From the IMG/VR virus record IMGVR_UViG_2740892214_000006: DNA of 20,655 nucleotides; one strand, written 5' to 3'. This DNA comes from a virus. Its lineage: Duplodnaviria; Heunggongvirae; Uroviricota; Caudoviricetes. How positions within the stretch are numbered: the first letter of the stretch is position 1; each line of letters begins with the position of its first letter. Below, one piece after another: positions 8,663 to 20,655 of this stretch. The notes beneath the pieces were generated by a model. That model did not search any database. It saw only the letters and a program-made list of their open reading frames with translations, and was not told where the DNA came from. The position numbers and the translations under genes were made by a program.

Positions 8663-9124
8663 ATGGAACTAAAATTTATTGATAACCCTGTGCGATTACA
8701 GGCCTTTCTTAACGAGCCAGGCAATACCGAAAATATTGTTGAGCCGGGGCACACGTACTACATCAAGCCTGATGCGGTATATCTCGGCATCTACGAAGGA
8801 TTAGTGCTGGCTGGCGTTCATGAAGTGCGTAACTTCTGGCATAGCGTTGTTGAATGCCATGCGGTGTACGACCCCGGATTCCGTGGTGAATATGCACTGC
8901 AAGGACATCGATTATTCTGCAAATGGCTTCTCGAAAACTCACCATTCCTTAACAGCATCACTATGGTTCCTGACACCACGAAATACGGACGGGCAATTAT
9001 CCGTTTGCTTGGCGCTACCCGTGTTGGTCACCTTGATGATGCTTATATCAGATGTGGTAAACCCGTCGGCGTAACGCTTTATCAGTTAACTCGGCAACAA
9101 TATAAGGAATTCAGCGAATGTTAA
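8663..9124 (+). CDS. hypothetical protein (153 aa); positional analogue of P22 gp14
   Basis: First gene of a coupled four-gene chain; stop overlaps the next start (ATGTTAA). Function inferred only from position. Confidence 0.7.
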   Translation: MELKFIDNPVRLQAFLNEPGNTENIVEPGHTYYIKPDAVYLGIYEGLVLAGVHEVRNFWHSVVECHAVYDPGFRGEYALQGHRLFCKWLLENSPFLNSITMVPDTTKYGRAIIRLLGATRVGHLDDAYIRCGKPVGVTLYQLTRQQYKEFSEC

Positions 9125-9795
9125 TTACCCATATAGCTCATAAACATCTCAATCGTGCCGTATACGAAAAAGGCGGTGATGGTGGTGCCTCTAAAGCTCA
9201 GGCGAAGGCCCAGCAGCAGGCAATTGATTTGCAGCGCGAGCAGTGGAATACGGTGATGAATAATCTCAAGCCGTATGCAGAAGTCGGATTGCCTGCTTTA
9301 CAACAACTGCAAGGACTGATGACTCTGGAAGGGCAGAATAAAGCCGCGAATGATTTCTTTGGTTCTGGTTTATATAAAACACAGGCAGATCAGGCCCGTT
9401 ATCAGAACCTTGTCTCAGCAGAAGCTACCGGGGGGCTTGGCTCAACAGCTACCAGTAACCAGTTATCTTCCATTGCGCCCATGCTTTATAACAATTGGCT
9501 CAGTGGGCAAATGCAAAATTATGGAAACCTGCTAAATGTCGGGATGAATGCGGCATCAGGGCAGGCAACAGCAGGGCAAAACTACGCCAATAATACCGGG
9601 CAACTCTTGCAGGGGCTTGGCGCTATTCGTGCAGGTCAGGCGCAGCAGCCATCCAGTCTTGCGCGTGGTATTGGTGGGGCGGCATCAGGCGCTTTAGCGG
9701 GTGCGCAACTTGGTTCCGTTGTTCCGGGTATAGGTAATGTCGCCGGGGCTATTGGTGGTGGGCTTATTGGTCTTGTTGGGGGGCTTGGATTCTAA
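9118..9795 (+). CDS. putative virion internal/ejection protein (P22 gp7-like by size, order and composition)
   Basis: 225 aa, with Q/N/G/A-rich low-complexity and a Gly-rich hydrophobic C-terminus (GIGGAASGALAGAQLGSVVPGIGNVAGAIGGGLIGLVGGLGF). SD AAGGA upstream; TAATG overlap with the next gene. Confidence 0.75.
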   Translation: MLITHIAHKHLNRAVYEKGGDGGASKAQAKAQQQAIDLQREQWNTVMNNLKPYAEVGLPALQQLQGLMTLEGQNKAANDFFGSGLYKTQADQARYQNLVSAEATGGLGSTATSNQLSSIAPMLYNNWLSGQMQNYGNLLNVGMNAASGQATAGQNYANNTGQLLQGLGAIRAGQAQQPSSLARGIGGAASGALAGAQLGSVVPGIGNVAGAIGGGLIGLVGGLGF

Positions 9796-11093
9796 TGGCG
9801 ACATGGCAACTTGGCGGGCTGCCTAGCATGGCACCGCAAAATGATAATGCTCCTCGTTCTTCCGTTCTTCAGCCTGTGCAGTATCAGCAGCAGCCAAACG
9901 TAGGTTTAATGGCGCTACAGGGGCTAAGAGGCGTTGCTGAGATTAATCAGCAGGCACGTCAACAACAGCGTAAAGCAGAGTTTCAGAAAGCATATGCCGG
10001 GGCTTTTGAGTCTGGAGACAGAAACAAAATGCGCAGTCTTATTTCTGAGTATCCAGAAGAATTTGAAAGCGTTCAGAAAGGGATGGGCTTTATTGATGAC
10101 GACCAGAGAAATTCTATTGGTCATCTTGCGACTAGTGCTCAAATCGCATCTTCGCTCGGAACTGGGGCATTTGGAAAATTCATAGCAGATAACGAAGATG
10201 AAATGCGTCGCTTGGGAATTTCTCCTGAGTCTGTTGCCGAAATGCATGTTAATGATCCACAGGGATTCCAGCGGCTTGCTGGTAGTATGGCACTGTTTTC
10301 TCTCGGTCATGAGAAGTATTTCGATATCAAAGATCAAATGGAAGGTCGTCGACTTGAGCAAGGGCGACTGGATGAAAGTATGCGTCAGGCTGACATGGAG
10401 AACGCGAGAGGATGGGCAAATATCCAGAACGCTCAACTAGACAGGGCTCAGCGAGCACAAATTCACTCAGATGAGATGGGATTGAAGCTAATGGAGCTGG
10501 GGCAAAAAGGTAAGCCGTCAGCAGACTTAATTAAGGGATTAAATTCTGACATTACCAATTTTGGCAAAAATTATAACTCTGTCAGAGCGGCGGCAAACTC
10601 TCTGCAAGCCCTTAGCAAGGTAAATACTGGCGCTGCCCAACTTGGGATTATCTTCAACTACATGAAATCTCTTGACCCGCAGTCAGTCGTTCGTGAAGGC
10701 GAACAGGTTCAGGTAATGCGGTCTGATGGCATATGGGGACAAATCAAAGGATACATAGACCAGCTTAATGCTGGAAACGGCCTGTCGCAGGAGGCAAAGG
10801 ATAACATTGTTAACGCCGCAAAAATCAACGCCAATGCTATGGGGCAGCAGTTTAACCAGCAGGTTGACGAGTATCTCGATACATATGGAGAAACTATTCC
10901 TCAGGGGCTAAGAAAAAGCCTTGAAAGAAGGAAAGCGAAGCTATTTGACGATGTTTCCGGGCAGCCTACATCACAGGCTGGCACTGGACAGGCAAAAGCG
11001 GCAACCGGAGGAATATCAGAAGGCGCAACGGCAACCAACCCTAAAACTGGTCAGAAAATCATTTACAGGAACGGAAAATGGCAGCAAATGTAA
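9795..11093 (+). CDS. putative virion internal/ejection protein (P22 gp20-like by size, order and composition)
   Basis: 432 aa, Q-rich N-terminus, coupled to flanking genes by overlapping start/stop; composition typical of podovirus ejection proteins. Confidence 0.8.
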   Translation: MATWQLGGLPSMAPQNDNAPRSSVLQPVQYQQQPNVGLMALQGLRGVAEINQQARQQQRKAEFQKAYAGAFESGDRNKMRSLISEYPEEFESVQKGMGFIDDDQRNSIGHLATSAQIASSLGTGAFGKFIADNEDEMRRLGISPESVAEMHVNDPQGFQRLAGSMALFSLGHEKYFDIKDQMEGRRLEQGRLDESMRQADMENARGWANIQNAQLDRAQRAQIHSDEMGLKLMELGQKGKPSADLIKGLNSDITNFGKNYNSVRAAANSLQALSKVNTGAAQLGIIFNYMKSLDPQSVVREGEQVQVMRSDGIWGQIKGYIDQLNAGNGLSQEAKDNIVNAAKINANAMGQQFNQQVDEYLDTYGETIPQGLRKSLERRKAKLFDDVSGQPTSQAGTGQAKAATGGISEGATATNPKTGQKIIYRNGKWQQM

Positions 11094-13195
11094 TCTTACC
11101 GGAAGGTTTTGTGCTCGATGAACAACCTGATAACTCACAGTTTCCTGATAGTTCACAGCTTCCTGATGGTTTTGTGCTTGATGCCCAACCAGAACAGCAG
11201 CAATCACCTTTGGTTTCACCAGAGGAAAATTCCAGACAGGAAAATGTTGTTAATAATGCTAACGGTTTCGACCGTTTTATGTATGGCGTTCTCAGTGGAT
11301 TGATGGATGTTGGTAAAGGTGTTGGCCTGTTTCAGGATATGACACCAGAAGAGCAAGCCGCAATTCAGTCTCTACAGCAGAAGTTAGCGGCAAAACCATC
11401 AACCGCACAAGATGTTGGTGAGTTCGTTGGACAAGCAGCGCCATTTGTTAGTGGTGGTGGGATTATTTCTCAGGTTCCCAAAGGGGCGGCAAGACTGGCT
11501 GCCGCCGCAGGGCTTGGTGCTGGAGAAGGGGCTATTGTAGCCAATGGAACAAATAGCGATGTTGCTTCCGGCGCTGCTATTGGCGCTGTGGCTGGCCCTG
11601 TAGCCGAACTTGCTGGCCCTGCAATTAATAAAATAGCTGGGAAATTAACCAAGAAGAATGTTTCTTCGATTCCAGATATTGAGGGGATTACTCCTGCCGA
11701 AGAGAAAATTCGTAAGTTATCTGCACAAGGCAACCCAAATCTTGCCTCTTCGCTTGAAGGGCTAGATCTAAAACCTCAGAAAGAAATTGTTGAGGCTGCA
11801 AATAGGCTTCATGTTGATTCAGTTCTTCCTTCTCATTTATCAGGAAATGAGCAATACCAAGCTGTAGAGCAAGCCCTAAAGTCACGGACAGGATCAGCGT
11901 TAAAAGCTCAAGAAGATAAAGCAATAAGCGAATTAGCCTCTAGTGCTGGCAAGATAATCGATGATGTTGCTGGTGCGCCAGATGCGTTAGCTATGAGCGA
12001 AAAATATATTTATCAGATAAATAGTAGAATGGAAGCACTAAAAAACCGTAGTGATCAGTTATATAAACGTGTTGATTCCGCTCTATCACCAAGAACAAAA
12101 GTCGAAGCAAATAACACAAGCACTATGCTGGAAAAAATCGCTGATGATTTAGGAGGGTGGGATAATCTTGACCCAATAGAAAAGCGAGTTTTTACAGCAA
12201 TAAACCCCGGCCCAGATAGCATCCTAACGTATGCAAATTTAAACAGGCAAAGGCGTTTAGTTGGTGATGCCCTAAATAAAAAGCAGGGGCCATACAAAGA
12301 TGCTGATAAAGAAGCGCTATCAAGACTATATGGAGCTTTAGCTGAAGACCAAAAATCTGTCTTATCCAATACTGGATACTTGCGAGATTTCGAAGTCGCA
12401 CAACGCCTTGTAGCTATGAGAAAAAACTTAGAAAGGCAAATGGTAAATCTTCGCGGGAAAACACTTAATGGGGATATAGCGTATAAAGTAACGAATTCTC
12501 TTCAATCTATGGCAAAAGGTGATGCGAGAGGGTTTCGTGAGATTATGCAAAATACTCCATCAAGAACATTGCGAAGGGAGCTAGTAGGAACAGCATTAAG
12601 AGATATACTTTCCTCTGGGAAGCGTGGGGCCGACTTTAATCCATCTGGCTTTGCAGATTGGTGGCAAAACTTGCAACACAGTGGACAGCTAAAGACTTTG
12701 GCTGAACATTTGCCAAAAGAAACAATGAGCGGACTATATGATGTATACAAAGTTGCCAGAGCAATAAAAAATGCTAAAGCGCATGAAATATCTACTGGTA
12801 AGCTGAATGAGTTTGTAAACAGATTTAATCGGGTAACAGCTCCATACGAACTAGCAGCAAAACACATTCAAAAAATAGGCACGATGGTAGGCGCTCATTT
12901 TGGATCGCTTGGAGCCATTGCTGGGGCTGATATTGGAGCAAGATTGGCGAGTAAAGCTCGATTAGCTGGTGGAGCAGGGGCGGCTGATGCTGCGGATAAA
13001 TTAATTGCCTCGCCAGCCTTCCAGAGCGCAGTAAAAAATCTACACGGAAAAGCGCCTGGGCACATTGTTGATTCACGTATCAGGCGCTCCCCTCAATGGA
13101 AGAGTTTTTTTAACTCTCTTCCTGAACAGGAAAAACGGACCATCGCCAGACTGGGCATCATTACTTGGCTATCTAATGATCCAGATAATGACTAG
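11078..13195 (+). CDS. putative virion internal/ejection protein (P22 gp16-like by size, order and composition)
   Basis: 705 aa; SD AGGAACGG upstream, start overlaps previous gene by 16 nt. N-terminal tandem repeat LPEGFVLDEQP / LPDGFVLDAQP; Gly/Ala-rich blocks flank a lower-GC central part. Confidence 0.8.
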   Translation: MAANVILPEGFVLDEQPDNSQFPDSSQLPDGFVLDAQPEQQQSPLVSPEENSRQENVVNNANGFDRFMYGVLSGLMDVGKGVGLFQDMTPEEQAAIQSLQQKLAAKPSTAQDVGEFVGQAAPFVSGGGIISQVPKGAARLAAAAGLGAGEGAIVANGTNSDVASGAAIGAVAGPVAELAGPAINKIAGKLTKKNVSSIPDIEGITPAEEKIRKLSAQGNPNLASSLEGLDLKPQKEIVEAANRLHVDSVLPSHLSGNEQYQAVEQALKSRTGSALKAQEDKAISELASSAGKIIDDVAGAPDALAMSEKYIYQINSRMEALKNRSDQLYKRVDSALSPRTKVEANNTSTMLEKIADDLGGWDNLDPIEKRVFTAINPGPDSILTYANLNRQRRLVGDALNKKQGPYKDADKEALSRLYGALAEDQKSVLSNTGYLRDFEVAQRLVAMRKNLERQMVNLRGKTLNGDIAYKVTNSLQSMAKGDARGFREIMQNTPSRTLRRELVGTALRDILSSGKRGADFNPSGFADWWQNLQHSGQLKTLAEHLPKETMSGLYDVYKVARAIKNAKAHEISTGKLNEFVNRFNRVTAPYELAAKHIQKIGTMVGAHFGSLGAIAGADIGARLASKARLAGGAGAADAADKLIASPAFQSAVKNLHGKAPGHIVDSRIRRSPQWKSFFNSLPEQEKRTIARLGIITWLSNDPDND

Positions 13196-13214
13196 TGAAT
13201 GGCCACGGATGGCC

Positions 13215-13640
13215 TCAATCTTTATTCTTTGAAATAGAGTCATTGATCTTTTCGAAACACCAATGAAATCCACAAAAGAGAGCTACACCAATATAACAAT
13301 ACAAAACTATCAACCACCTTTCAGTGTCCGAAGGGTAAAAAACATCAATTACATAAGCAACACCAATTGGTATTAATGCTAGTAATAACATCGACACAGG
13401 ACGTACAAACTTCTGAACTATATCAATTTTATAGAACCACAAGGCGGTATGTTTAATGATATAAGTAAAGATGGCTGCGCCAATAATGGCAAAAAACACC
13501 ATCGATAAAGTCGGGTATAACTTTGCGACAATTAAACCCAACAAAATAATTATAACTGCCTGCCCCCTCACACCAACCCTCCCTTTAGCTTTGTTTAGAA
13601 TGGCAATCATCATATATCCAAGACATGGCATTTGGTACAT
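13215..13640 (-). CDS. small integral membrane protein (4 predicted TM helices); candidate superinfection-exclusion protein
   Basis: 141-aa ORF convergent with the ejection-protein operon; four hydrophobic segments; markedly AT-rich (moron-like); occupies the position of sieA in P22-type genomes. Weak RBS, start uncertain. Confidence 0.6.
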   Translation of the reverse strand: MYQMPCLGYMMIAILNKAKGRVGVRGQAVIIILLGLIVAKLYPTLSMVFFAIIGAAIFTYIIKHTALWFYKIDIVQKFVRPVSMLLLALIPIGVAYVIDVFYPSDTERWLIVLYCYIGVALFCGFHWCFEKINDSISKNKD

Positions 13641-13764
13641 AGCTTGGGTCGGGATTTCAAATCCGCTCCCAGTTGATGGGGCCGTTACAGTACGCGCATA
13701 TCCGCTTTATGTGAAACAGGAAGATTTTTCTGATATCACTGCCACAGCAAAACACCAATTTCGA

Positions 13765-13780
13765 GACAAGTACGCGCGCG
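13765..13780. repeat. GACAAGTACGCGCGCG motif, copy 1
   Basis: Exact 16-mer shared with copies at 14050 and 15333; alternating CG palindromic core. Confidence 0.6.
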
Positions 13781-13788
13781 AGGGGTAT

Positions 13789-13812
13789 CAGTTGCAAAAA
13801 GTTTTGCAACTG
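13789..13812. promoter_or_regulatory. operator-like perfect palindrome CAGTTGCAAAA-AG-TTTTGCAACTG
   Basis: 11-bp inverted arms with a 2-nt spacer, in the 450-bp intergenic region upstream of the membrane-protein gene. Confidence 0.4.
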
Positions 13813-14049
13813 CGTCCGACCAGTACGCACACAATGGAGGGAAGTACCATAAAACTGTTCTCTACATAAGACAGAGTGGTGGTGATGTGTTGATTATCGG
13901 CGTATATGCGCACAGGACGCGCTATGACAATGTTTTATGCGGGTACACCAATCACATGTATCTGATGTGATAAATCGCGTTACATGACATCTCTGTTGTG
14001 CTGGTGGTTATCACGACTTTCTGAATCTGGCCTTTGCCTGATATTTTGC

Positions 14050-14065
14050 GACAAGTACGCGCGCG
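14050..14065. repeat. GACAAGTACGCGCGCG motif, copy 2
   Basis: Exact 16-mer; extended palindrome TACGCGCGCGTA; lies about 30 nt beyond the 3' end of the small - strand gene. Confidence 0.6.
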
Positions 14066-14093
14066 TAGCATCGACAGCATACACATTGGATAT

Positions 14094-14315
14094 TCATTTT
14101 GTGACCAATGCGATAAGTAGCGGGATAAGAATTGATAAAATCAACAGGCCGATGATCCACTTTTGATTTTCACTGGCCTTATCTCTATTTTCATCAATCT
14201 TATCAATAATTCGACGCTCCAAGCCGTGCATATCACCGCGAATGGCAATCATCTCATTGCGAACATCCGAGAAGTGGTTGGCTTGATGTTCAATGTGTGG
14301 CGTTCTGCCTTTCAT
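14094..14315 (-). CDS. small tail-anchored membrane protein (73 aa)
   Basis: Hydrophilic charged N-terminal 50 aa followed by one C-terminal TM helix (WIIGLLILSILIPLLIALV); AGGA upstream of ATG. Confidence 0.5.
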   Translation of the reverse strand: MKGRTPHIEHQANHFSDVRNEMIAIRGDMHGLERRIIDKIDENRDKASENQKWIIGLLILSILIPLLIALVTK

Positions 14316-14394
14316 TCCTGATCCTCACCTATCGTCACCACCTGCTGGTGTATAAAGGTATTGGCCCAAGCAGCTTTCCAATGGGCACTCATGT

Positions 14395-14850
14395 TTATAC
14401 GCTGACCTTACAATCAATCACCGCTTTTAACTTTTCAGCATTGCTTCCCTGACGCTTCCACGCGCTGTAAATATCTTTATCCCACGCTTTACCAGCTTTT
14501 GTTTGATAGCCTGCTTCATTGATCCGTTCAGCTATCACACGCCCATTATCAAATCCCTGTTGGATGGTATCGGCAATGATCTTTATAACTGCCGTTTCGT
14601 TATATGGTTTTGGTGGGATGTTCGGCTTTCCGGCAATAAGCGACGCAGCGGCTTTTTCCATGCGCTCCACCAGCCCAAGCATTCGTGAATCAATAGACTT
14701 TTCCGGCTGCCCCAGCTTCATGCGAATCGCATCAACAAGCCAGGAGGTTTTATCTCCTCCAGAAGCGAGAACAGACCGATTAAACTCATCCTGCAATTCA
14801 GATGGGATGCGGAACGCGATCAGATTAGATTTGCTCATTGCAAAGACCAT
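14395..14850 (-). CDS. RHH-domain (Arc/Mnt-like) repressor-like protein with C-terminal extension (151 aa)
   Basis: N-terminus has an RHH signature (beta-strand LIAFRIPSEL followed by helices); divergent from the PerC-like gene across an operator-like region. Start could be ATG 14850 or 14838. Confidence 0.65.
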   Translation of the reverse strand: MVFAMSKSNLIAFRIPSELQDEFNRSVLASGGDKTSWLVDAIRMKLGQPEKSIDSRMLGLVERMEKAAASLIAGKPNIPPKPYNETAVIKIIADTIQQGFDNGRVIAERINEAGYQTKAGKAWDKDIYSAWKRQGSNAEKLKAVIDCKVSV

Positions 14851-14867
14851 ATCAGTGAGTAATATCC

Positions 14868-14899
14868 ATACAGTATACCACTGTATAACACTGTTATAC
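14868..14899. promoter_or_regulatory. operator-like repeats in a divergent promoter region
   Basis: Inverted repeat ATACAGT (14868-14874) / ACTGTAT (14880-14886), followed by direct repeats ACTGTATAAC / ACTGTTATAC (14880-14899), between divergent genes. Confidence 0.4.
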
Positions 14900-15002
14900 G
14901 CTCAAATATCAGCCAGAAAATAACGGACCAATCACAAAGCTATCGCTGTGTTGTTGGTTCAGAGCTGGGCTGTGTTGGTTCAAAATAATCTGAGAGGCAG
15001 AA

Positions 15003-15284
15003 ATGATAAGGGACAGGAAAGCTGAAGAGCTGGAGTCAAAAGGGCTATACCGGAGAGCTGCCGCACGATGGATGGAAGTCATGCTGTTATGCACCGAGGA
15101 CGATGATCGGGAATGGATAAAGCGCCGCCGTGAAACGTGTCTGGAGAACGTGAAGCGCCCGCCCGTGAAGGTTGAGGACTTTGGCGACCTGCATAAAGCT
15201 GTTACCGAAACGCAACACCGCATGGGGATAGCGCAACCGAACGGTAACGCCTTCCGGTTAAATGGCGGCAAGAGGCAAAGGTAG
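15003..15284 (+). CDS. PerC-family-like transcriptional regulator (93 aa)
   Basis: SD GAGAGG 5 nt before ATG 15003. Motif EELESKGLYRRAAARWMEVM...DREWIKRRRETCL matches my recollection of the PerC/Pch family signature. Confidence 0.65.
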   Translation: MIRDRKAEELESKGLYRRAAARWMEVMLLCTEDDDREWIKRRRETCLENVKRPPVKVEDFGDLHKAVTETQHRMGIAQPNGNAFRLNGGKRQR

Positions 15285-15288
15285 ACCA

Positions 15289-15310
15289 CCAGAGGGAAAT
15301 CATCCTCTGG
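15289..15310 (+). terminator. possible weak terminator hairpin
   Basis: 7-bp stem CCAGAGG / CCTCTGG with 8-nt loop, 5 nt after the PerC-like stop; the downstream T-tract is poor. Confidence 0.3.
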
Positions 15311-15332
15311 CTGGCGGTTTCTGGTATTTCGG

Positions 15333-15350
15333 GACAAGTACGCGCGCGCG
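15333..15350. repeat. GACAAGTACGCGCGCG(CG) motif, copy 3
   Basis: Same motif with one extra CG, giving the palindrome TACGCGCGCGCGTA; about 50 nt after the PerC-like stop. Confidence 0.6.
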
Positions 15351-15581
15351 TAGCACCCAATCGGTGAGGAAATAGCGGCGACCTGAATGGTCAAAATCAC
15401 AACGCAGCTATCCCCGTAAGCAGCGCTTAACGGAATAGCAGTAACCTGAATCCAGTGGGGAGGGGGTAGTCAAATCTCTACAGCCCTGACTATCCGGGAC
15501 TGCCCGCCCCATCGTTTTTTTATACCCGCGAAAAATGAAATTTAATCCGGGCGTGTTTCATCCTTCCAGAGGGTATGACGT

Positions 15582-15767
15582 ATGACACCACGCGAAATAG
15601 CCTTATTGACCATCGCCAAACTTGAGCACGGAGGCCACCAGCTTACACAGGCAGATCAACGGGAGATAGAACGATCAGTTAATGCCGATATAGCCCGGCG
15701 CGACAGGTTCCGCGAAATGATGCGAGCACCTGCCTACCAGTGGAAGAAGCCAGCGCCGCGCAGGTAG
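15582..15767 (+). CDS. small hypothetical protein (61 aa)
   Basis: ATG 15582 with AGAGGG about 9 nt upstream; charged and Arg-rich; no family recognised; could be spurious. Confidence 0.35.
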   Translation: MTPREIALLTIAKLEHGGHQLTQADQREIERSVNADIARRDRFREMMRAPAYQWKKPAPRR

Positions 15768-15887
15768 ATATGGGATTATTCCACATGTAACTTATGCGTA
15801 TTAAGCAAATTTCCTTTATTCACCTTTACAGAATTGTGAGTACGTCAGTATCGTTATCCTTCCGATTCGCATTTATTCAGGATTTGC

Positions 15888-16430
15888 ATGTACCAGCTAA
15901 AGATAACCATCCGAGACAGCAAACCACCTATATGGCGGCGTGTGCTGGTTCCAGAGCAAATCCCCTTTAGTAAACTTCATGCCGTGATCCAGTTAGCTTT
16001 TGGCTGGAATGACGAACACCTGTATATGTTCGAGAAAGGGCGTAAAGGTGATCCAGGTAGCGAGTATCGCGTATGGGGTGAGGATGAAAGCATGGGTAAC
16101 GCGGCAATCACGCCACTATGGGCGGCGCTCCAGAATGAGGGTGACAAGCTGGTTTACACGTATGACTTTGGCGACTGGTGGGATTGCGTCATTGTGCTGG
16201 AGAAGCAAACACACGATACGAGTAATCAGCCCATTAGCTGCCTGCGTGGGAAAGGCACCACCCCGGCGGAAAACTCAGGCGGCTTGCATGGTTACAATGA
16301 ATTGCTATTACAGGCCAGAGAGTCTGATAATCCTGAGCAGGCCGAGATCCACAATTTCCTGATGCTGGATATTGAACGCCGGGTTTACGACCTGAGCCGC
16401 ATCAACGACAGATTGCAGGCTATTTACTGA
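15888..16430 (+). CDS. plasmid pRiA4b ORF-3-like (PRiA4_ORF3) domain protein (180 aa)
   Basis: N-terminal YQLKITIRDSKPPIWRRVLVP...LH.VIQ.AFGW..EHLYMF matches the PRiA4_ORF3 signature as recalled; AGGA 5 nt before ATG. Confidence 0.8.
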   Translation: MYQLKITIRDSKPPIWRRVLVPEQIPFSKLHAVIQLAFGWNDEHLYMFEKGRKGDPGSEYRVWGEDESMGNAAITPLWAALQNEGDKLVYTYDFGDWWDCVIVLEKQTHDTSNQPISCLRGKGTTPAENSGGLHGYNELLLQARESDNPEQAEIHNFLMLDIERRVYDLSRINDRLQAIY

Positions 16431-16782
16431 CCCGCATGTATTCACCTGATATTGCGTTGTCAGCGCCGCCAGTATCGCGCATAACAGCGCACTGACCGGG
16501 TAAACCGTAGCGCACGACCGTTGCGTTAGTATCACCGCCGCGCCGTATCTGGCGCGATTCATACACTGTCACCCGCTCAAGCAGTCCACCAGCAACCATG
16601 CTTTCCAGTGTGCGCCGGGTTGATTCGAGCTGGTGACGCTTATCGAACGACACCATGCCATGAAGCAGGTAGGCCACACCCGACACATCGAACGGCGGCG
16701 CACCAATCTCACCAGTCACCCATTCGAGGTTATCCGGTTCAAAGTAGCTAAGTATCTCTTTTTTGCGACTGGTCATTCTCAT
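16420..16782 (-). CDS. hypothetical protein (120 aa)
   Basis: Protein-like ORF convergent with the PRiA4_ORF3-like gene (3' ends overlap by 11 nt); AAGGA about 10 nt upstream of ATG 16782. Confidence 0.6.
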   Translation of the reverse strand: MRMTSRKKEILSYFEPDNLEWVTGEIGAPPFDVSGVAYLLHGMVSFDKRHQLESTRRTLESMVAGGLLERVTVYESRQIRRGGDTNATVVRYGLPGQCAVMRDTGGADNAISGEYMRVSK

Positions 16783-17013
16783 GGCTGGCTGATTCCTTAT
16801 TGTGGGATAGCACTATCATACAATAAGTGGGTTAAAGGGAGAGCGTTACCGCCTGATATGCTGTATGAATAACAACCAAATTTCAGGGGCGGAAAAAGAT
16901 ATGGGGGTACTTTTGGGGGTATCTATAAAAAATGAACAATAAAAAAGGCAACAAAAACAAAGATTATCGCCTATGTGTATTGTTCCTATTATCGCACCAT
17001 TTAAATCAATAAG
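16783..17013. other. attP-like region with core resembling a tRNA-Thr 3' end
   Basis: AT-rich 230-bp non-coding region just 3' of int. 16983-16999 TTCCTATTATCGCACCA resembles the 3' end of thrW as recalled (CTCCTATTATCGGCACCA) with a 1-nt gap. No 5' tRNA portion upstream. Confidence 0.45.
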
Positions 17014-18177
17014 TTACACATCATTAGTACCTTCCTTATTTTTTGACTGGGACAAATTTGGGACCGATGGGTTCAGGATCGAGTCTATTTGCCGTGCGTG
17101 TTCGGTAAGGTGATTAGGTGCAAGGTGAGCATATCGACGAACCATTTCGATAGACTCCCAGCCTCCCATTTCCTGTAACACTGACAACGGGACTCCGGCT
17201 TGAACCAGCCAACTTGCCCAGGTGTGTCTCAAGTCGTGAAATCTGAAATCATCAATACCAGCCCGTCTCAGCGCCGCTTTCCAGGCTGTGTTTGCGTCAT
17301 ACCGCATCTTCCTTACTGTTGGCGCTTTCGTTCCGTCTGGTTTGGTACAGCTTTCCTTGTACACAAATACCCAACGGTGATGATTCCCGATTTGTTTTTT
17401 CAATACGCGACATGCAGTATCATTCAGCGCAACGCCAATTGCGCGGTTTGATTTACTCTCTTCCGGGTTTATCCATGCCACCCGGCGCTGCATATCTATT
17501 TGTTGCCATTCAAGGTTGATGATGTTCGAGCGTCTTAAGCCTGTTGCCAGTGCAAATTCAACAACAGACTTTAATGGCTCCGGACATTCATCAATCAGCC
17601 TTTGTGCTTCATGGGGCTCCAGCCAGCGGATCCGTTTATTCTTTGGTTGAGGCACTTTAATAATTGGTGCCTTATCCAGCATTTTCCATTCACGCTCTGC
17701 GGCTCTTAGTAGGGCCTTTATAAATGAAAGATGCGTAGCCTTCGTTGCAACGGACGCCGGTTTTGGCGTGTATTCTGGAACAGGTTTCCCTTTTTTTCTG
17801 CATGCTTCTGCCCTGAGTTTCCAGTTTTCCTCATGACGCCGGTTCGTCATTTTCTGCATTGCTGAATAAATTTTTGATTCAGTAATGTCTCTTAGTTGCA
17901 TTCCTGCGAAATGTTGAAGCCAGAATCCGATCCGGCTTTTGTCATCGTCCAGTGATTTTTTATGTGCTTTCTCTTCAAGCCACCTGACACACGCTTCCTC
18001 GAACGTTATATCAGGTATTTCACCAAGTTTGCTGACCCGCCATGCTTCAGCCTTTAGCTTGTCATGGAGTTCTGTCGCCTGCCTTTTGTCCTTTGTTCCA
18101 AGAGACTGTTTAAATCTTTTACCGTTCGGCAATGTGAAACTGGCGTACCATATTTCACCTCTGCGGAAGAGTGACAT
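17014..18177 (-). CDS. int: tyrosine integrase, P22-type
   Basis: 387 aa; N-terminus [28 protein letters not shown] matches my recollection of P22 Int; catalytic motifs [10 protein letters not shown] and RRYAHL; strong SD GAGGAAAG upstream. Confidence 0.95.
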
Positions 18178-18404
18178 TTTCTTTCCTCTGTTATGCCATC
18201 ACCCGCGCTCACCTGGACAGTATGCAGCGGAGACTGAAGAGCCGCAATGCAGGCTTGTCGTGTTGTGAGGTAAGGAGATTTATTCTTAGTGGGATCTTTG
18301 CGTGTTGCCTGAAGACGCCCTGTGCGTATCCAGTTAATGGCAGTCGGTCTGGATATCTTGAGAAAATGACAGGCCTCATCGAGTGTGAGGCTGTATGGCT
18401 CCAT
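18054..18404 (-). CDS. xis: excisionase, P22-type
   Basis: 116 aa from ATG 18404 (the ORF-track start 18488 is upstream); SD GAGGTGA before ATG; [33 protein letters not shown] is excisionase-like; 3' end overlaps the int start by 124 nt. Confidence 0.85.
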
Positions 18405-18709
18405 TATTTCACCTCTTGTTGTGACATTGTTGAAAAATGGATACCAGCTCGTTGCTGCCAGACGATCCAACCGAGAGTCATATCCCATGCCATGTATTCG
18501 TTATCGCCGTTTTTTGCTCTCCGACGATCTACTAAGTCACCGAAACGCTTTTCCATGAATAATTCATAAGCTTCGCGTTCATCTGGTTCTACTTCCAGAG
18601 ATAGGAGTGCGATTTCATAAGCACGGCGCTCAATATCGTCTCGCACGTCAAGGCTGCTGATACGCTCTTTAATTTCTTTAATCAGTTCTTTGTCGGTAAA
18701 AGTGGTCAT
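18404..18709 (-). CDS. hypothetical early-left-operon protein (101 aa)
   Basis: Acidic protein-like ORF; start overlaps upstream stop (TAATG) and stop overlaps the xis start. Confidence 0.6.
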   Translation of the reverse strand: MTTFTDKELIKEIKERISSLDVRDDIERRAYEIALLSLEVEPDEREAYELFMEKRFGDLVDRRRAKNGDNEYMAWDMTLGWIVWQQRAGIHFSTMSQQEVK

Positions 18710-19065
18710 TATGCTCCAGCCTCCGGTGCTTTTGGCATTACTGCCCAGTGAGTGATATTGACGTTTTCAAGATCCCCGACCTGAAATGTCCACTGCCATT
18801 CTCCGGTTTCTTTTTGTCCCCAGGTGTACCAGAGAGAACGCCAGCCAATTAGCCAGCCTTCTCCGTTAGCATCGAATAACAAAACACTTTCATTTGCTGG
18901 TGGCAGTTCAGTTGACACTGGTATTACTTTGTTTTCCTGTGCTGCACATTTAGCTTCAAGCGCATCGAATTTACGCACCAGGTATTCAGCATCTGTTTCA
19001 TTCACTTTCAGATCTCGCGGTACACATCTCCCACGAAGAAACCCTTCCATTTCGAAAACATTCAT
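18709..19065 (-). CDS. hypothetical phage protein, Trp-rich (DUF551-like?)
   Basis: Likely start is ATG 19065, overlapping the HD gene stop (ATGA); ORF-track start is 19071. Trp-rich segment GWLIGWRSLWYTWGQKETGEWQW...ITHWAVMP. Confidence 0.65.
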   Translation of the reverse strand: MNVFEMEGFLRGRCVPRDLKVNETDAEYLVRKFDALEAKCAAQENKVIPVSTELPPANESVLLFDANGEGWLIGWRSLWYTWGQKETGEWQWTFQVGDLENVNITHWAVMPKAPEAGA

Positions 19066-19598
19066 GCGCATTTGCGTAACTCCGATAACTCGTTAAAACG
19101 TTCCATAAACATCCCGTAGGCATGGCCCGGTGCCTGTGGAATCACTTTGAACATCTCTGTTGCCGGGATACCTTCCAGTACAGGCCAGAAAGAGCCATCA
19201 TCAAGCCCGAGATCGCGGCGTTCGGTTGCCAGCATAATGAGATCGGCATATTTCACTGGCGTGCTCATAACAGGAGGTAACCCGTATTTCTCACGGATTA
19301 CGGCGTCTATTTTTTCTTCCATCCGTTTATAGTCAGGAAGAAGTCGTTTCAGTGGTGCGGGGATGTCCTGGCAATATGCTTCTGTTGCATCATGCATTAA
19401 AGCTTCAAAAGCAAATTCCTGTGGCACCAGCTGGCTGCAAAGCACCGCATGTTGGGCGACACTGTAGAAGTGTGAAAGATGTCCTGCAAAGCGACAGATA
19501 TTTGAAAGGGAAACCGCGATATCGTTAATAACGATGTCGTCTTTATTTATCCTGTCATAATAAAAATGCTTCCCGGAAAAAGTTTTAATAAATGACAT
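19062..19598 (-). CDS. HD-domain phosphohydrolase (YfbR-like 5'-deoxynucleotidase family)
   Basis: Start ATG 19598 with SD GGAG upstream (ORF-track ATG 19625 lacks one). Motifs H...H (FAGHLSHFYSVAQHAV), HD (ALMHDATEAY) and DIPAPLK resemble YfbR. Confidence 0.85.
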   Translation of the reverse strand: MSFIKTFSGKHFYYDRINKDDIVINDIAVSLSNICRFAGHLSHFYSVAQHAVLCSQLVPQEFAFEALMHDATEAYCQDIPAPLKRLLPDYKRMEEKIDAVIREKYGLPPVMSTPVKYADLIMLATERRDLGLDDGSFWPVLEGIPATEMFKVIPQAPGHAYGMFMERFNELSELRKCA

Positions 19599-19639
19599 TT
19601 TGTTCTCCACGTATATGCGCTGCACCGCGCTGAATTCGG

Positions 19640-20140
19640 GTAAAAGGAAGCCCTCACCGTCCGGCGATTATTGAGTCAATTACATTTCCATAAATGCCCC
19701 CGTAGGGGCGGTTAGTTTCTCCACAAAACAGAGAAGAACACCTGCGGTGGCAGCCGCCCGGATGGATTGGGTTATGAGCCCGTCGTCCGGTGATGCTCTT
19801 CTCTGTTTTGTAAAAAGGACGGTACCAGCCGGAAGCAAGGGTACAAGCTGGTACCGCCAAGACTACACACAGCATAAAGTTGTGGTGCCGGGTGCCTCCC
19901 GGTGCCTGGCGAAGGTTGCACACCAGGCGGGTGGGTATCCACAGAAGGTCGACTGTCAGCCTCAACCTTAACCCGCGTGCGCTGAGCCGCATTCACCACA
20001 ACGCTAAGGATTCTCTCTGGTTGAAAATACTTAGCTGTTATGTGCCTGCTTTTAGCCACATCAGGCGAGGTGGACCTAGTTATTCCCCAACAACAAGGAT
20101 TCGGTTAATCTGGTTATCCCCAACAACGTAAAAGGAAAAG
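19640..20140. other. GC-rich structured non-coding region (candidate ncRNA or recombination/regulatory site)
   Basis: About 500 bp with only overlapping Arg/Pro-rich ORFs on both strands. 14-bp inverted repeat CAAAACAGAGAAGA / TCTTCTCTGTTTTG (19724-19737, 19797-19810) encloses 59 nt with nested hairpins; 9-bp stem GGTACCAGC / GCTGGTACC (19821-19855); more GC hairpins to about 19950. Confidence 0.3.
20080..20127. promoter_or_regulatory. tandem repeats TTAT(T)CCCCAACAAC upstream of a low-GC gene
   Basis: Copies at 20080-20094 and 20114-20127, 16-50 nt upstream of ATG 20143; candidate operator or promoter element. Confidence 0.35.
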
Positions 20141-20142
20141 AA

Positions 20143-20577
20143 ATGTCCGGTAATATCTATACGCTGTACAAATCCCACTGTGAAAATGTTGGAAAGTATC
20201 GGGGCATTGAAATCAGTGGGGTAGTGTCATCAGTCGAAATAAGCAAAGTTGAATCAAGGGCAACATTACTTACTCTTTTGGACCTTGTCTTACATGAGCA
20301 CCGGAAGAAATTCGGCACTCCCTATAATCAGTTGAATGGGAAAAAGGCTCTGGTTCACCTTATTCTGATGAAGCATCACTGGATGCCAAAACAGATTAAT
20401 GAGATGAAATTTGATGAACTTCTTCTTTCAATTCAGGATGAACTCACACTTGATAAAATAAGCGTAACCGCCCAGAAATTTTTAGATTATCGAGACTGGA
20501 GATCACAAATTCATCACTTTGATGATTTTGACGAAAATGAATGGGATCCTAATTTGTCTGCACAATATCTAAAGTAA
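20143..20577 (+). CDS. hypothetical protein (144 aa), low-GC moron
   Basis: AAGGA upstream of ATG 20143; coding sequence is AT-rich next to a GC-rich upstream region; no family recognised. Confidence 0.65.
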   Translation: MSGNIYTLYKSHCENVGKYRGIEISGVVSSVEISKVESRATLLTLLDLVLHEHRKKFGTPYNQLNGKKALVHLILMKHHWMPKQINEMKFDELLLSIQDELTLDKISVTAQKFLDYRDWRSQIHHFDDFDENEWDPNLSAQYLK

Positions 20578-20655
20578 CATCCTGGGCACTGTTGCAAAGT
20601 TAGCGATGAGGCAGCCTTTTGTCTTATTCAAAGGCCTTACATTTCAAAAACTCTG

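Follow-up and report, generated by a model that had tools for sequence, protein, structure and literature searches.

We analysed a cluster of four small genes at positions 15003–16782 of a 20,655-nucleotide stretch of viral DNA (Caudoviricetes; IMG/VR record IMGVR_UViG_2740892214_000006), the whole of which is referred to here as the window. The cluster consists of a PerC-like regulator gene, the small open reading frame (ORF) orf61, a PRiA4_ORF3 gene and, in convergent orientation, orf120. A first-pass annotation made from the letters alone had described it as a moron cluster next to attP. The four ORFs and the convergent 11-nt overlap at 16420–16430 proved to be real. The ORFs are not chance products, because the same four coding sequences were annotated by the NCBI Prokaryotic Genome Annotation Pipeline in hundreds of E. 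coli genomes, the orf120 family was spread across Enterobacterales and orf61 was conserved beside orf120 in 15 of 19 species-level loci. The cluster very probably forms the end next to attR of a phage-inducible chromosomal island (PICI) of the EcCIMP1 type, integrated at thrW, which stands in tandem with an SfV-like prophage and whose end carries three backbone genes and one mobile cargo gene. The genes and sites of the locus, with their coordinates in the window, are as follows.

15003..15284, plus strand: PerC-family small regulator, orthologue of EcCIMP1_025, 93 aa (PF06069)
15458..15581, plus strand: conserved leader of orf61; a long GC-rich hairpin followed by U7 lies at ~15457-15526
15582..15767, plus strand: orf61, conserved small backbone protein, 61 aa (phrog_7271, E=2e-6)
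15771..16428, plus strand: cargo cassette of ~660 bp, made up of a 120-bp AT-rich leader (15768-15887) and the PRiA4_ORF3 gene
15888-16430, plus strand: PRiA4_ORF3 gene, 180 aa (PF07929)
16420..16782, minus strand: orf120, conserved terminal backbone gene, predicted winged-helix protein, 120 aa (AlphaFold2)
16796..16827, no strand: 32-bp imperfect palindrome CTTATTGTGGGATAG-CA-CTATCATACAATAAG, 14-45 nt upstream of the orf120 ATG; putative operator/promoter
16902-16909 and 16914-16921, no strand: two TGGGGGTA repeats, read from the sequence; candidate arm-type sites
16984-16993, no strand: att core TCCTATTATC, with an extended match to the thrW 3' end over 16984-17000; point where attR of the PICI joins attL of the tandem prophage
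17014..18177, minus strand: integrase of the SfV/SfII/SfIV-like prophage (PF00589, E=3e-48); context, outside the cluster
14395..14850, minus strand: orf151, conserved island backbone gene on the left flank of the cluster (no Pfam or PADLOC match)

Positions 14985 to 17004 of the window matched the right end of EcCIMP1 in E. coli MP1 at 99.7% identity, and the other backbone blocks of the window were 96–98% identical to the MP1 island. The last four genes of that island encode PerC, a 61-aa protein, a pRiA4b ORF-3 family protein and a 119-aa hypothetical protein. EcCIMP1 was described from E. coli MP1 as a 19,963-bp PICI (Pick, Stadel & Raivio, ISME J 2025; PMC11773190; GenBank OR778291), and its behaviour as a PICI is taken here from that study. 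It occupies the tRNA-Thr gene between proA and yagU with TCCTATTATC on both flanks, its excision and transduction occurred solely with the P22-like helper phage Kapi1, and the canonical alpA was needed for excision (PMC11773190). In enterotoxigenic E. coli (ETEC) H10407, STW0522-31 and SW07164, the gene order was thrW (tRNA-Thr), integrase, a small alpA-like helix-turn-helix regulator, AntA/AntB, DUF4222, Ash, Toprim/DUF5906 primase, P22-type ejection genes, PerC, orf61, PRiA4_ORF3, orf120, the att repeat and yagP'/paoD, SW07164 being collinear only up to a divergent PerC gene (54% identity) that was followed directly by another integrase. The window held the same backbone domains, with primase, AntA and Ash confirmed. 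The features by which Gram-negative PICIs are recognised, namely an integrase, an AlpA-type regulator and a primase in this order, a length of ~15–20 kb and att repeats, were all found; int and alpA of the island were present in the collinear islands, which were 96–100% identical in shared blocks. Approximately 300 of the 5426 complete E. coli genomes carried at least 80% of positions 14900–16900. The element and its PerC-like gene have thus already been described and partly characterised experimentally, and orf61, PRiA4_ORF3 and orf120 were not discussed in the EcCIMP1 paper (PMC11773190). Novelty is limited to the cargo slot, the origin of the gene overlap at an insertion junction, and a predicted autoregulated winged-helix protein with its palindrome.

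EcCIMP1 homology stopped at 17004, and SfV-like homology started at 16984. DNA similarity to SfIV, SfV, SfII and SfI (98–99.7%) began abruptly at this position and was limited to int, xis and early genes rightward, the int–xis region being 98–99.7% identical to SfIV, SfV and SfII, and the SfV, SfII and SfIV genomes showed no similarity to the window left of 16984. The att core in the window was the one published for EcCIMP1 and lies 200 bp from orf120; the 3' end of thrW, TCCTATTATCGGCACCA, recurred at 16984–17000 as TCCTATTATCGCACCAT. From orf120 to the core, the sequence was the same as at the island/chromosome junction of H10407. Judging from these boundaries, the SfV-like prophage used the right-hand att copy of the satellite and the two elements are now in tandem. 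The prophage portion of the window (16984–20655) comprised int, xis and YfdQ/YfdR-type early genes. The exact combination of this satellite with an SfV-like prophage was found in none of the complete E. coli genomes in the collection, the best match accounting for 78% of the window. The same pair of TGGGGGTA repeats was located beside the island integrase at attL in SW07164 (L003 4507–4530), and the pairs on both att arms are probably arm-type sites for the island integrase.

These boundaries bear directly on the placement of the cluster next to attP. The geometry stood, as an att core adjoins the cluster, and what did not stand was the assignment to the integrase, since integrase and cluster belong to different elements. 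In its full form, the earlier interpretation takes the cluster as morons of the integrase-bearing lambdoid prophage near attP, with a PerC/Pch-like activator that would switch on host virulence genes in lysogeny. It can draw on the solid PerC family assignment, on an integrase gene ~230 bp from the cluster with the att core adjoining, and on PICI- and prophage-encoded PerC homologues of which some activate LEE, the locus of enterocyte effacement (PMC6092414). We nevertheless consider it extremely unlikely. Homology to the phages started only at 16984, which leaves the cluster on the other side of the core from the phage genes and outside the SfV-like prophage. An identical cluster occurred in many genomes without that integrase, and in ETEC H10407, STW0522-31 and MP1 it adjoined yagP'/paoD. 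The activator component also conflicted with published expression data on PICI-encoded PerC-like proteins. The main value of the present analysis lies in this correction: in annotation, these genes should be labelled as one end of a phage satellite within a thrW tandem array and not as prophage morons.

The PerC assignment itself was confirmed with Pfam (PF06069, 105.6 bits against a cut-off of 22.6, E=1.7e-30), residues 1–85 aligning to positions 1–85 of the 90 in the model. The protein was 98.9% identical to EcCIMP1_025 of MP1, with one residue different. Its closest Pch relative was PchE of O157 Sakai, at 54% identity, and its identity to plasmid-borne PerC-family genes in E. coli was ~36–43%. 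The ANR family model NF033650 matched residues 5–50 with 31.4 bits (cut-off 32), and a PDB sequence search returned no match. Expression of EcCIMP1_025 in Citrobacter rodentium resulted in dose-dependent silencing of LEE1-lux, whereas perC from enteropathogenic E. coli (EPEC) activated it, and the authors of that study proposed a behaviour like that of ANR-family repressors (PMC11773190). The PICIs EcCIEDL933 and EcCICFT073 also carry PerC-like genes, and these were without effect on LEE1-lacZ fusions (PMC11773190). Gram-negative PICIs commonly carry PerC homologues, and activation of the LEE has been reported for only some of them (PMC6092414). The suggestion that the copy in the window activates host virulence loci is contradicted by the only experiment that bears on it, in which the 98.9%-identical orthologue silenced LEE1 (PMC11773190), and the gene is not to be read as a virulence activator. 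Its product would be a small helical regulator whose near-identical orthologue represses the LEE1 promoter; it is probably ANR-like, acting through protein–protein contacts with AraC-type activators or H-NS, and not an activator.

The PRiA4_ORF3 assignment also held when checked against Pfam (PF07929, 146.2 bits against a cut-off of 26.6, E=1.1e-42), and the protein matched the structural-genomics protein MM3350 (PDB 2I1S) with E=3.2e-21 over residues 1–167. The boundaries of the cassette were set by alignment to Shimwellia (L011) and Pseudomonas lundensis (L021), where the site is empty. To describe the variability of the site, one genome per species was scanned, which yielded 30 loci; orf120 was intact in 19 of these, and E. 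coli totals were added. Among these 19 intact species-level loci, PRiA4_ORF3 was the convergent neighbour in the slot between orf61 and orf120 in 8; the loci carrying it belonged to Lonsdalea, Enterobacter, Atlantibacter, Kluyvera and a Klebsiella sp. In the 11 loci lacking PRiA4, orf120 abutted orf61 (Shimwellia and Pseudomonas lundensis), orf151 or an integrase, or other genes intervened. Homologues of orf151 stood beside orf120 in 8/19 of the loci. The slot was also occupied by SoFic, a recognised defence gene (PADLOC E=1.6e-46), by a capP-like M78 peptidase together with a membrane protein, by a CHAD protein and by DUF2280, and in Atlantibacter a SocA/Panacea pair was located beside PRiA4. 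PRiA4_ORF3, with an MM3350-like fold, is a self-contained cassette in the convergent junction of orf61 and orf120, a site that is empty or differently filled in related islands.

In the literature, PRiA4_ORF3 appeared only in annotation lists and as a passenger of Mutator-type transposons, with no function assigned; the pRiA4_Orf3-like passenger genes were reported from the ISAzba1 group (PMC3942029). In Klebsiella sp. WOUb02 (L015 6350–8365), the PRiA4_ORF3 homologue had a Mutator-family (IS256-like) transposase gene immediately upstream of it, oriented in the same way. A metagenomic PRiA4 with 61% protein identity (L035) was considered as a divergent copy and rejected: it was the same cassette at 93–97% DNA identity, and its low protein identity most likely stems from frame errors in the contig.

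PRiA4_ORF3 and orf120 had also been proposed to form a two-gene unit, and the co-occurrence analysis spoke against it. Such a unit could consist of a winged-helix regulator or antitoxin controlling a PRiA4 effector, with expression coupled by the convergent overlap. The overlap is consistent with this, as is the lack of a terminator between the genes (a promoter and terminator scan gave sites no more than chance, and no terminator). Linkage within E. coli was almost perfect, PRiA4 being present in 371–375 genomes and the close orf120 allele in ~379, nearly always together, and the Klebsiella locus (L015) kept both genes at 71–74% identity. Against this stand the 11 of 19 intact loci with orf120 and no PRiA4, including Shimwellia alleles that were 90–92% identical and had no cassette, and the ~112 E. 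coli genomes, O157:H7 among them, whose divergent orf120 allele was found without PRiA4. The reverse was seen in Serratia, where a 76%-identical PRiA4_ORF3 was located beside Phd/Fic without orf120, and three more distant homologues (34–38% identity) had no shared or conserved neighbour. The overlap varied in length, from 11 nt in the window to 8 nt in Kluyvera, and the palindrome of orf120 was unchanged with or without PRiA4. Alignment of filled and empty sites indicated that the final two codons and the stop codon of orf120 come from the right end of the cassette, which took the place of the two codons formerly there and so created the 11-nt overlap. Co-occurrence and adjacency across lineages, as expected for an obligate two-gene module, were not found. 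We regard a dedicated unit as unlikely; going by the aligned junctions, the two genes are paired facultatively and their overlap is the scar of an insertion. A looser functional link between them may exist, as the Klebsiella locus retains both.

The orf120 family comprised 541 clusters at 90% identity, mostly from Enterobacterales, with 90 representatives at 50% identity. No match was obtained for orf120 in Pfam, NCBIfam or PADLOC, and a PDB sequence search was also empty. A first AlphaFold2 model, based on a shallow alignment, was unusable (predicted local distance difference test, pLDDT, of 55) and was redone after an exhaustive search for representatives. With an alignment of 37 sequences, the pLDDT rose to 81, and the model showed five helices, a long beta-hairpin and a disordered tail. 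The weak Foldseek matches were all to winged-helix proteins: the replication terminator protein (RTP), PadR/LmrR, VanR, the winged-helix domain of a methyltransferase and TFIIE; one uncharacterised viral relative was found in BFVD (E=2e-8). Conservation was highest in the stretch LESTRRTL, which belongs to the long helix preceding the wing; the motif RYGLPG lies within the wing.

The palindrome upstream of orf120, with the half-sites CTTATTGT and ACAATAAG, was kept at all the distinct orf120 loci that were compared (24 loci, with 21 distinct upstream sequences), including those of Pseudomonas and O157. The sequence beyond it was unrelated between loci, changing completely with the integration site. 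In its arms, 82% of cells were complementary, vs. 28–48% in slid registers. An RNA hairpin was considered and rejected, as covariation did not exceed that of shuffles and a likely −10 element lies inside the left arm. Because the arms are complementary without compensatory variation, the palindrome is better regarded as a conserved DNA site than as an RNA helix. The window and the complete H10407 island each contained it once, and no extra copies were found in the island or in phages. Exact matches in IMG/VR numbered 20, of which 17 were ahead of orf120, 2 ahead of truncated copies and 1 unrelated. From the predicted fold and the position of this site, we infer that orf120 binds DNA and controls the promoter of its own gene. 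It would bind the palindrome over this promoter and repress itself, and it may have further targets outside the island. Together, orf120 and the palindrome constitute a predicted regulator common to at least two PICI lineages, including the O157:H7 island.

This second island, located at cspD–clpS in E. coli O157:H7 F8798 (L036 8098–9780), is PICI-like and carries an orf120 homologue with the same palindrome. Its orf120 is transcribed divergently from a PerC gene, and three PerC-family ORFs and a ProQ/FinO gene flank it.

An alternative role for orf120 is that of a recombination-directionality or att accessory factor, with the palindrome, 160 bp from the core, as an architectural att-arm site. 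Excisionases also have winged-helix folds. The position would suit such a factor, in that orf120 and the palindrome were always the last features before the att arm, and orf120 and int would flank attP in the excised circle. In the O157 island, however, the orf120 homologue was internal and faced the PerC gene instead of the att site. The distance of the palindrome was fixed to the ATG of orf120 and not to the core, and the palindrome persisted at different integration sites. The excision factor of EcCIMP1, moreover, is the canonical alpA (PMC11773190). An att-related function is therefore judged very unlikely, and autoregulation by orf120 remains the preferred interpretation.

The third backbone gene, orf61, encodes a protein without a Pfam, NCBIfam or PADLOC match. 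A jackhmmer search identified 24 homologous ORFs across loci, adjacent to or near orf120 in 15/19 of the species-level loci. Its leader, the last 124 nt of the spacer, was 80–91% identical ahead of orf61 in other genera. The spacer between PerC and orf61 (15285–15581) is 297 bp long and GC-rich, with a stem-loop directly after the PerC stop codon. A non-coding RNA between the two genes was considered and not supported, with no Rfam match and fold z-scores of −1.6 and −1.3, which were not significant. A second copy of orf61 (62% identity) was present upstream of PerC in EcCIMP1 of MP1 (L037 10931–11149), and the window has one.

Whether the cargo gene contributes to phage immunity was weighed separately, as an explanation compatible with the island interpretation and extending it. 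The PRiA4_ORF3 cassette could be an anti-phage or superinfection-exclusion gene behind the immunity of EcCIMP1 to its helper Kapi1. In sister islands the slot holds SoFic and a capP-like M78 peptidase, an Abi gene occurs in the neighbouring variable region, and PRiA4 homologues were found beside SocA/Panacea, Phd-Doc and PIN modules. EcCIMP1 confers superinfection immunity to Kapi1, and no known defence system was detected in it (PMC11773190). PRiA4_ORF3, however, had no match in PADLOC, two of its three distant homologues were located among housekeeping genes, and its occurrence as a passenger of Mutator-type transposons points to a role in DNA transactions or regulation. The P22-type ejection-protein homologues of the island are an equally good candidate for the immunity. 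In the broader search, none of the four cluster proteins or four neighbours matched PADLOC-DB 2.0 at E≤0.1; when the four cluster proteins were scanned against PADLOC, PHROGs and NCBIfam, PerC/ANR was the only functional lead. An anti-phage role of PRiA4_ORF3 is doubtful on this balance. The more specific proposal, of PRiA4 as a new single-gene anti-phage or superinfection-immunity determinant with the winged-helix orf120 as the resident regulator of the slot, is quite doubtful. If true, it would explain the Kapi1 immunity of EcCIMP1 and provide the first function for the widespread MM3350/pRiA4b ORF-3 domain. The orf61–orf120 slot of EcCIMP1-type islands is a place to look for new accessory and defence genes, and EcCIMP1 in MP1 offers a tractable system for studying the function of PRiA4_ORF3.

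Further to the left, the window contained homologues of P22 virion and ejection genes (8663–13195), namely DUF2824 (gp14-like), gp7, gp20 Inj_translocase and a 705-aa protein in the gp16 position. This block was in part ~90% DNA-identical to the helper phage Kapi1, and P22-type ejection genes were also noted in the EcCIMP1 paper (PMC11773190). Between the ejection genes and PerC lies a second variable region (~13200–14900), which in the window held orf141, orf73 and orf151, all on the minus strand. Elsewhere (L001 7532–8494; L037 11402–11560) it held an Abi family gene, in STW0522-31 and SW07164, or the Xis-like alpA_1, in MP1.

Several observations weigh against individual parts of the interpretation advanced here. 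The island's own int and alpA were not in the window, because the window starts downstream of both. Repression of LEE1 was obtained by overexpression in a heterologous host. The PDB matches of orf120 found with Foldseek were weak (best E=8e-3, ranging to 0.2; template modelling, TM, scores of 0.4–0.54), so that the winged-helix label rests on topology. The palindrome includes the likely −10 element and a Shine-Dalgarno sequence, and part of its conservation may for this reason reflect the promoter or ribosome-binding site and not an operator. The linkage of PRiA4 and orf120 within E. coli and their joint retention in the Klebsiella locus, given above, belong to the same side of the balance.

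Compared with EcCIMP1, the island in the window shares the integration site and att core, all four genes and the backbone of AntA, Ash, primase and P22-type ejection genes. It differs in the N-terminal 352 residues of the primase, which were only 85% identical, and in the interval between the ejection genes and PerC, which holds orf141/orf73/orf151 instead of the alpA_1 of MP1. Because these two segments diverge, the window is considered to hold a mosaic variant. The neighbours also differ, the island in the window adjoining an SfV-like prophage and that of MP1 the vat island.

The PerC-like protein resembles the PerC/Pch proteins (PerC of EPEC; PchA-E of enterohaemorrhagic E. coli) and the ANR protein Aar, given its full-length Pfam PerC match and an N-terminal stretch of 50 residues that resembles ANR. 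PerC/Pch and ANR genes, like the gene in the window, are all located on mobile elements. Unlike PerC/Pch, the orthologue of the window protein represses LEE1, and the ANR score was just under the cut-off. Another small PICI-encoded regulator is RgdR (ECs1581), which controls the LEE/type III secretion and motility in O157:H7 and was reportedly present in all analysed E. coli PICIs. It is akin to the regulators of the cluster in this respect, and unlike them its relative in the window lies outside the cluster, as the DUF4222 ORF at 1143–1412 (38% identity, E=3e-11, to the core of RgdR). Neither orf61 nor orf120, both considered as candidates for RgdR, showed similarity to it.

With MarR/PadR-type autoregulated repressors, orf120 would share a predicted helix bundle with a long beta-wing, conserved basic residues within the helix that carries LESTRRTL and a palindrome lying over the promoter of its own gene; it differs from them in lacking membership of a sequence profile and in the weakness of its structural matches. 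The homology of PRiA4_ORF3 to the MM3350/pRiA4b ORF-3 family extends through the entire domain and takes in the YTYDFGDxW and SGG..GY motifs. Unlike the Mutator-type carriers of this family, the gene in the window is a stand-alone satellite cassette with no transposase. As in the psu–int hotspot of P4 and the accessory regions of PICIs, the slot is fixed between conserved genes near the att end and has variable content, including SoFic, whereas, unlike in satellite defence hotspots, most of its fillings are not recognised defence systems.

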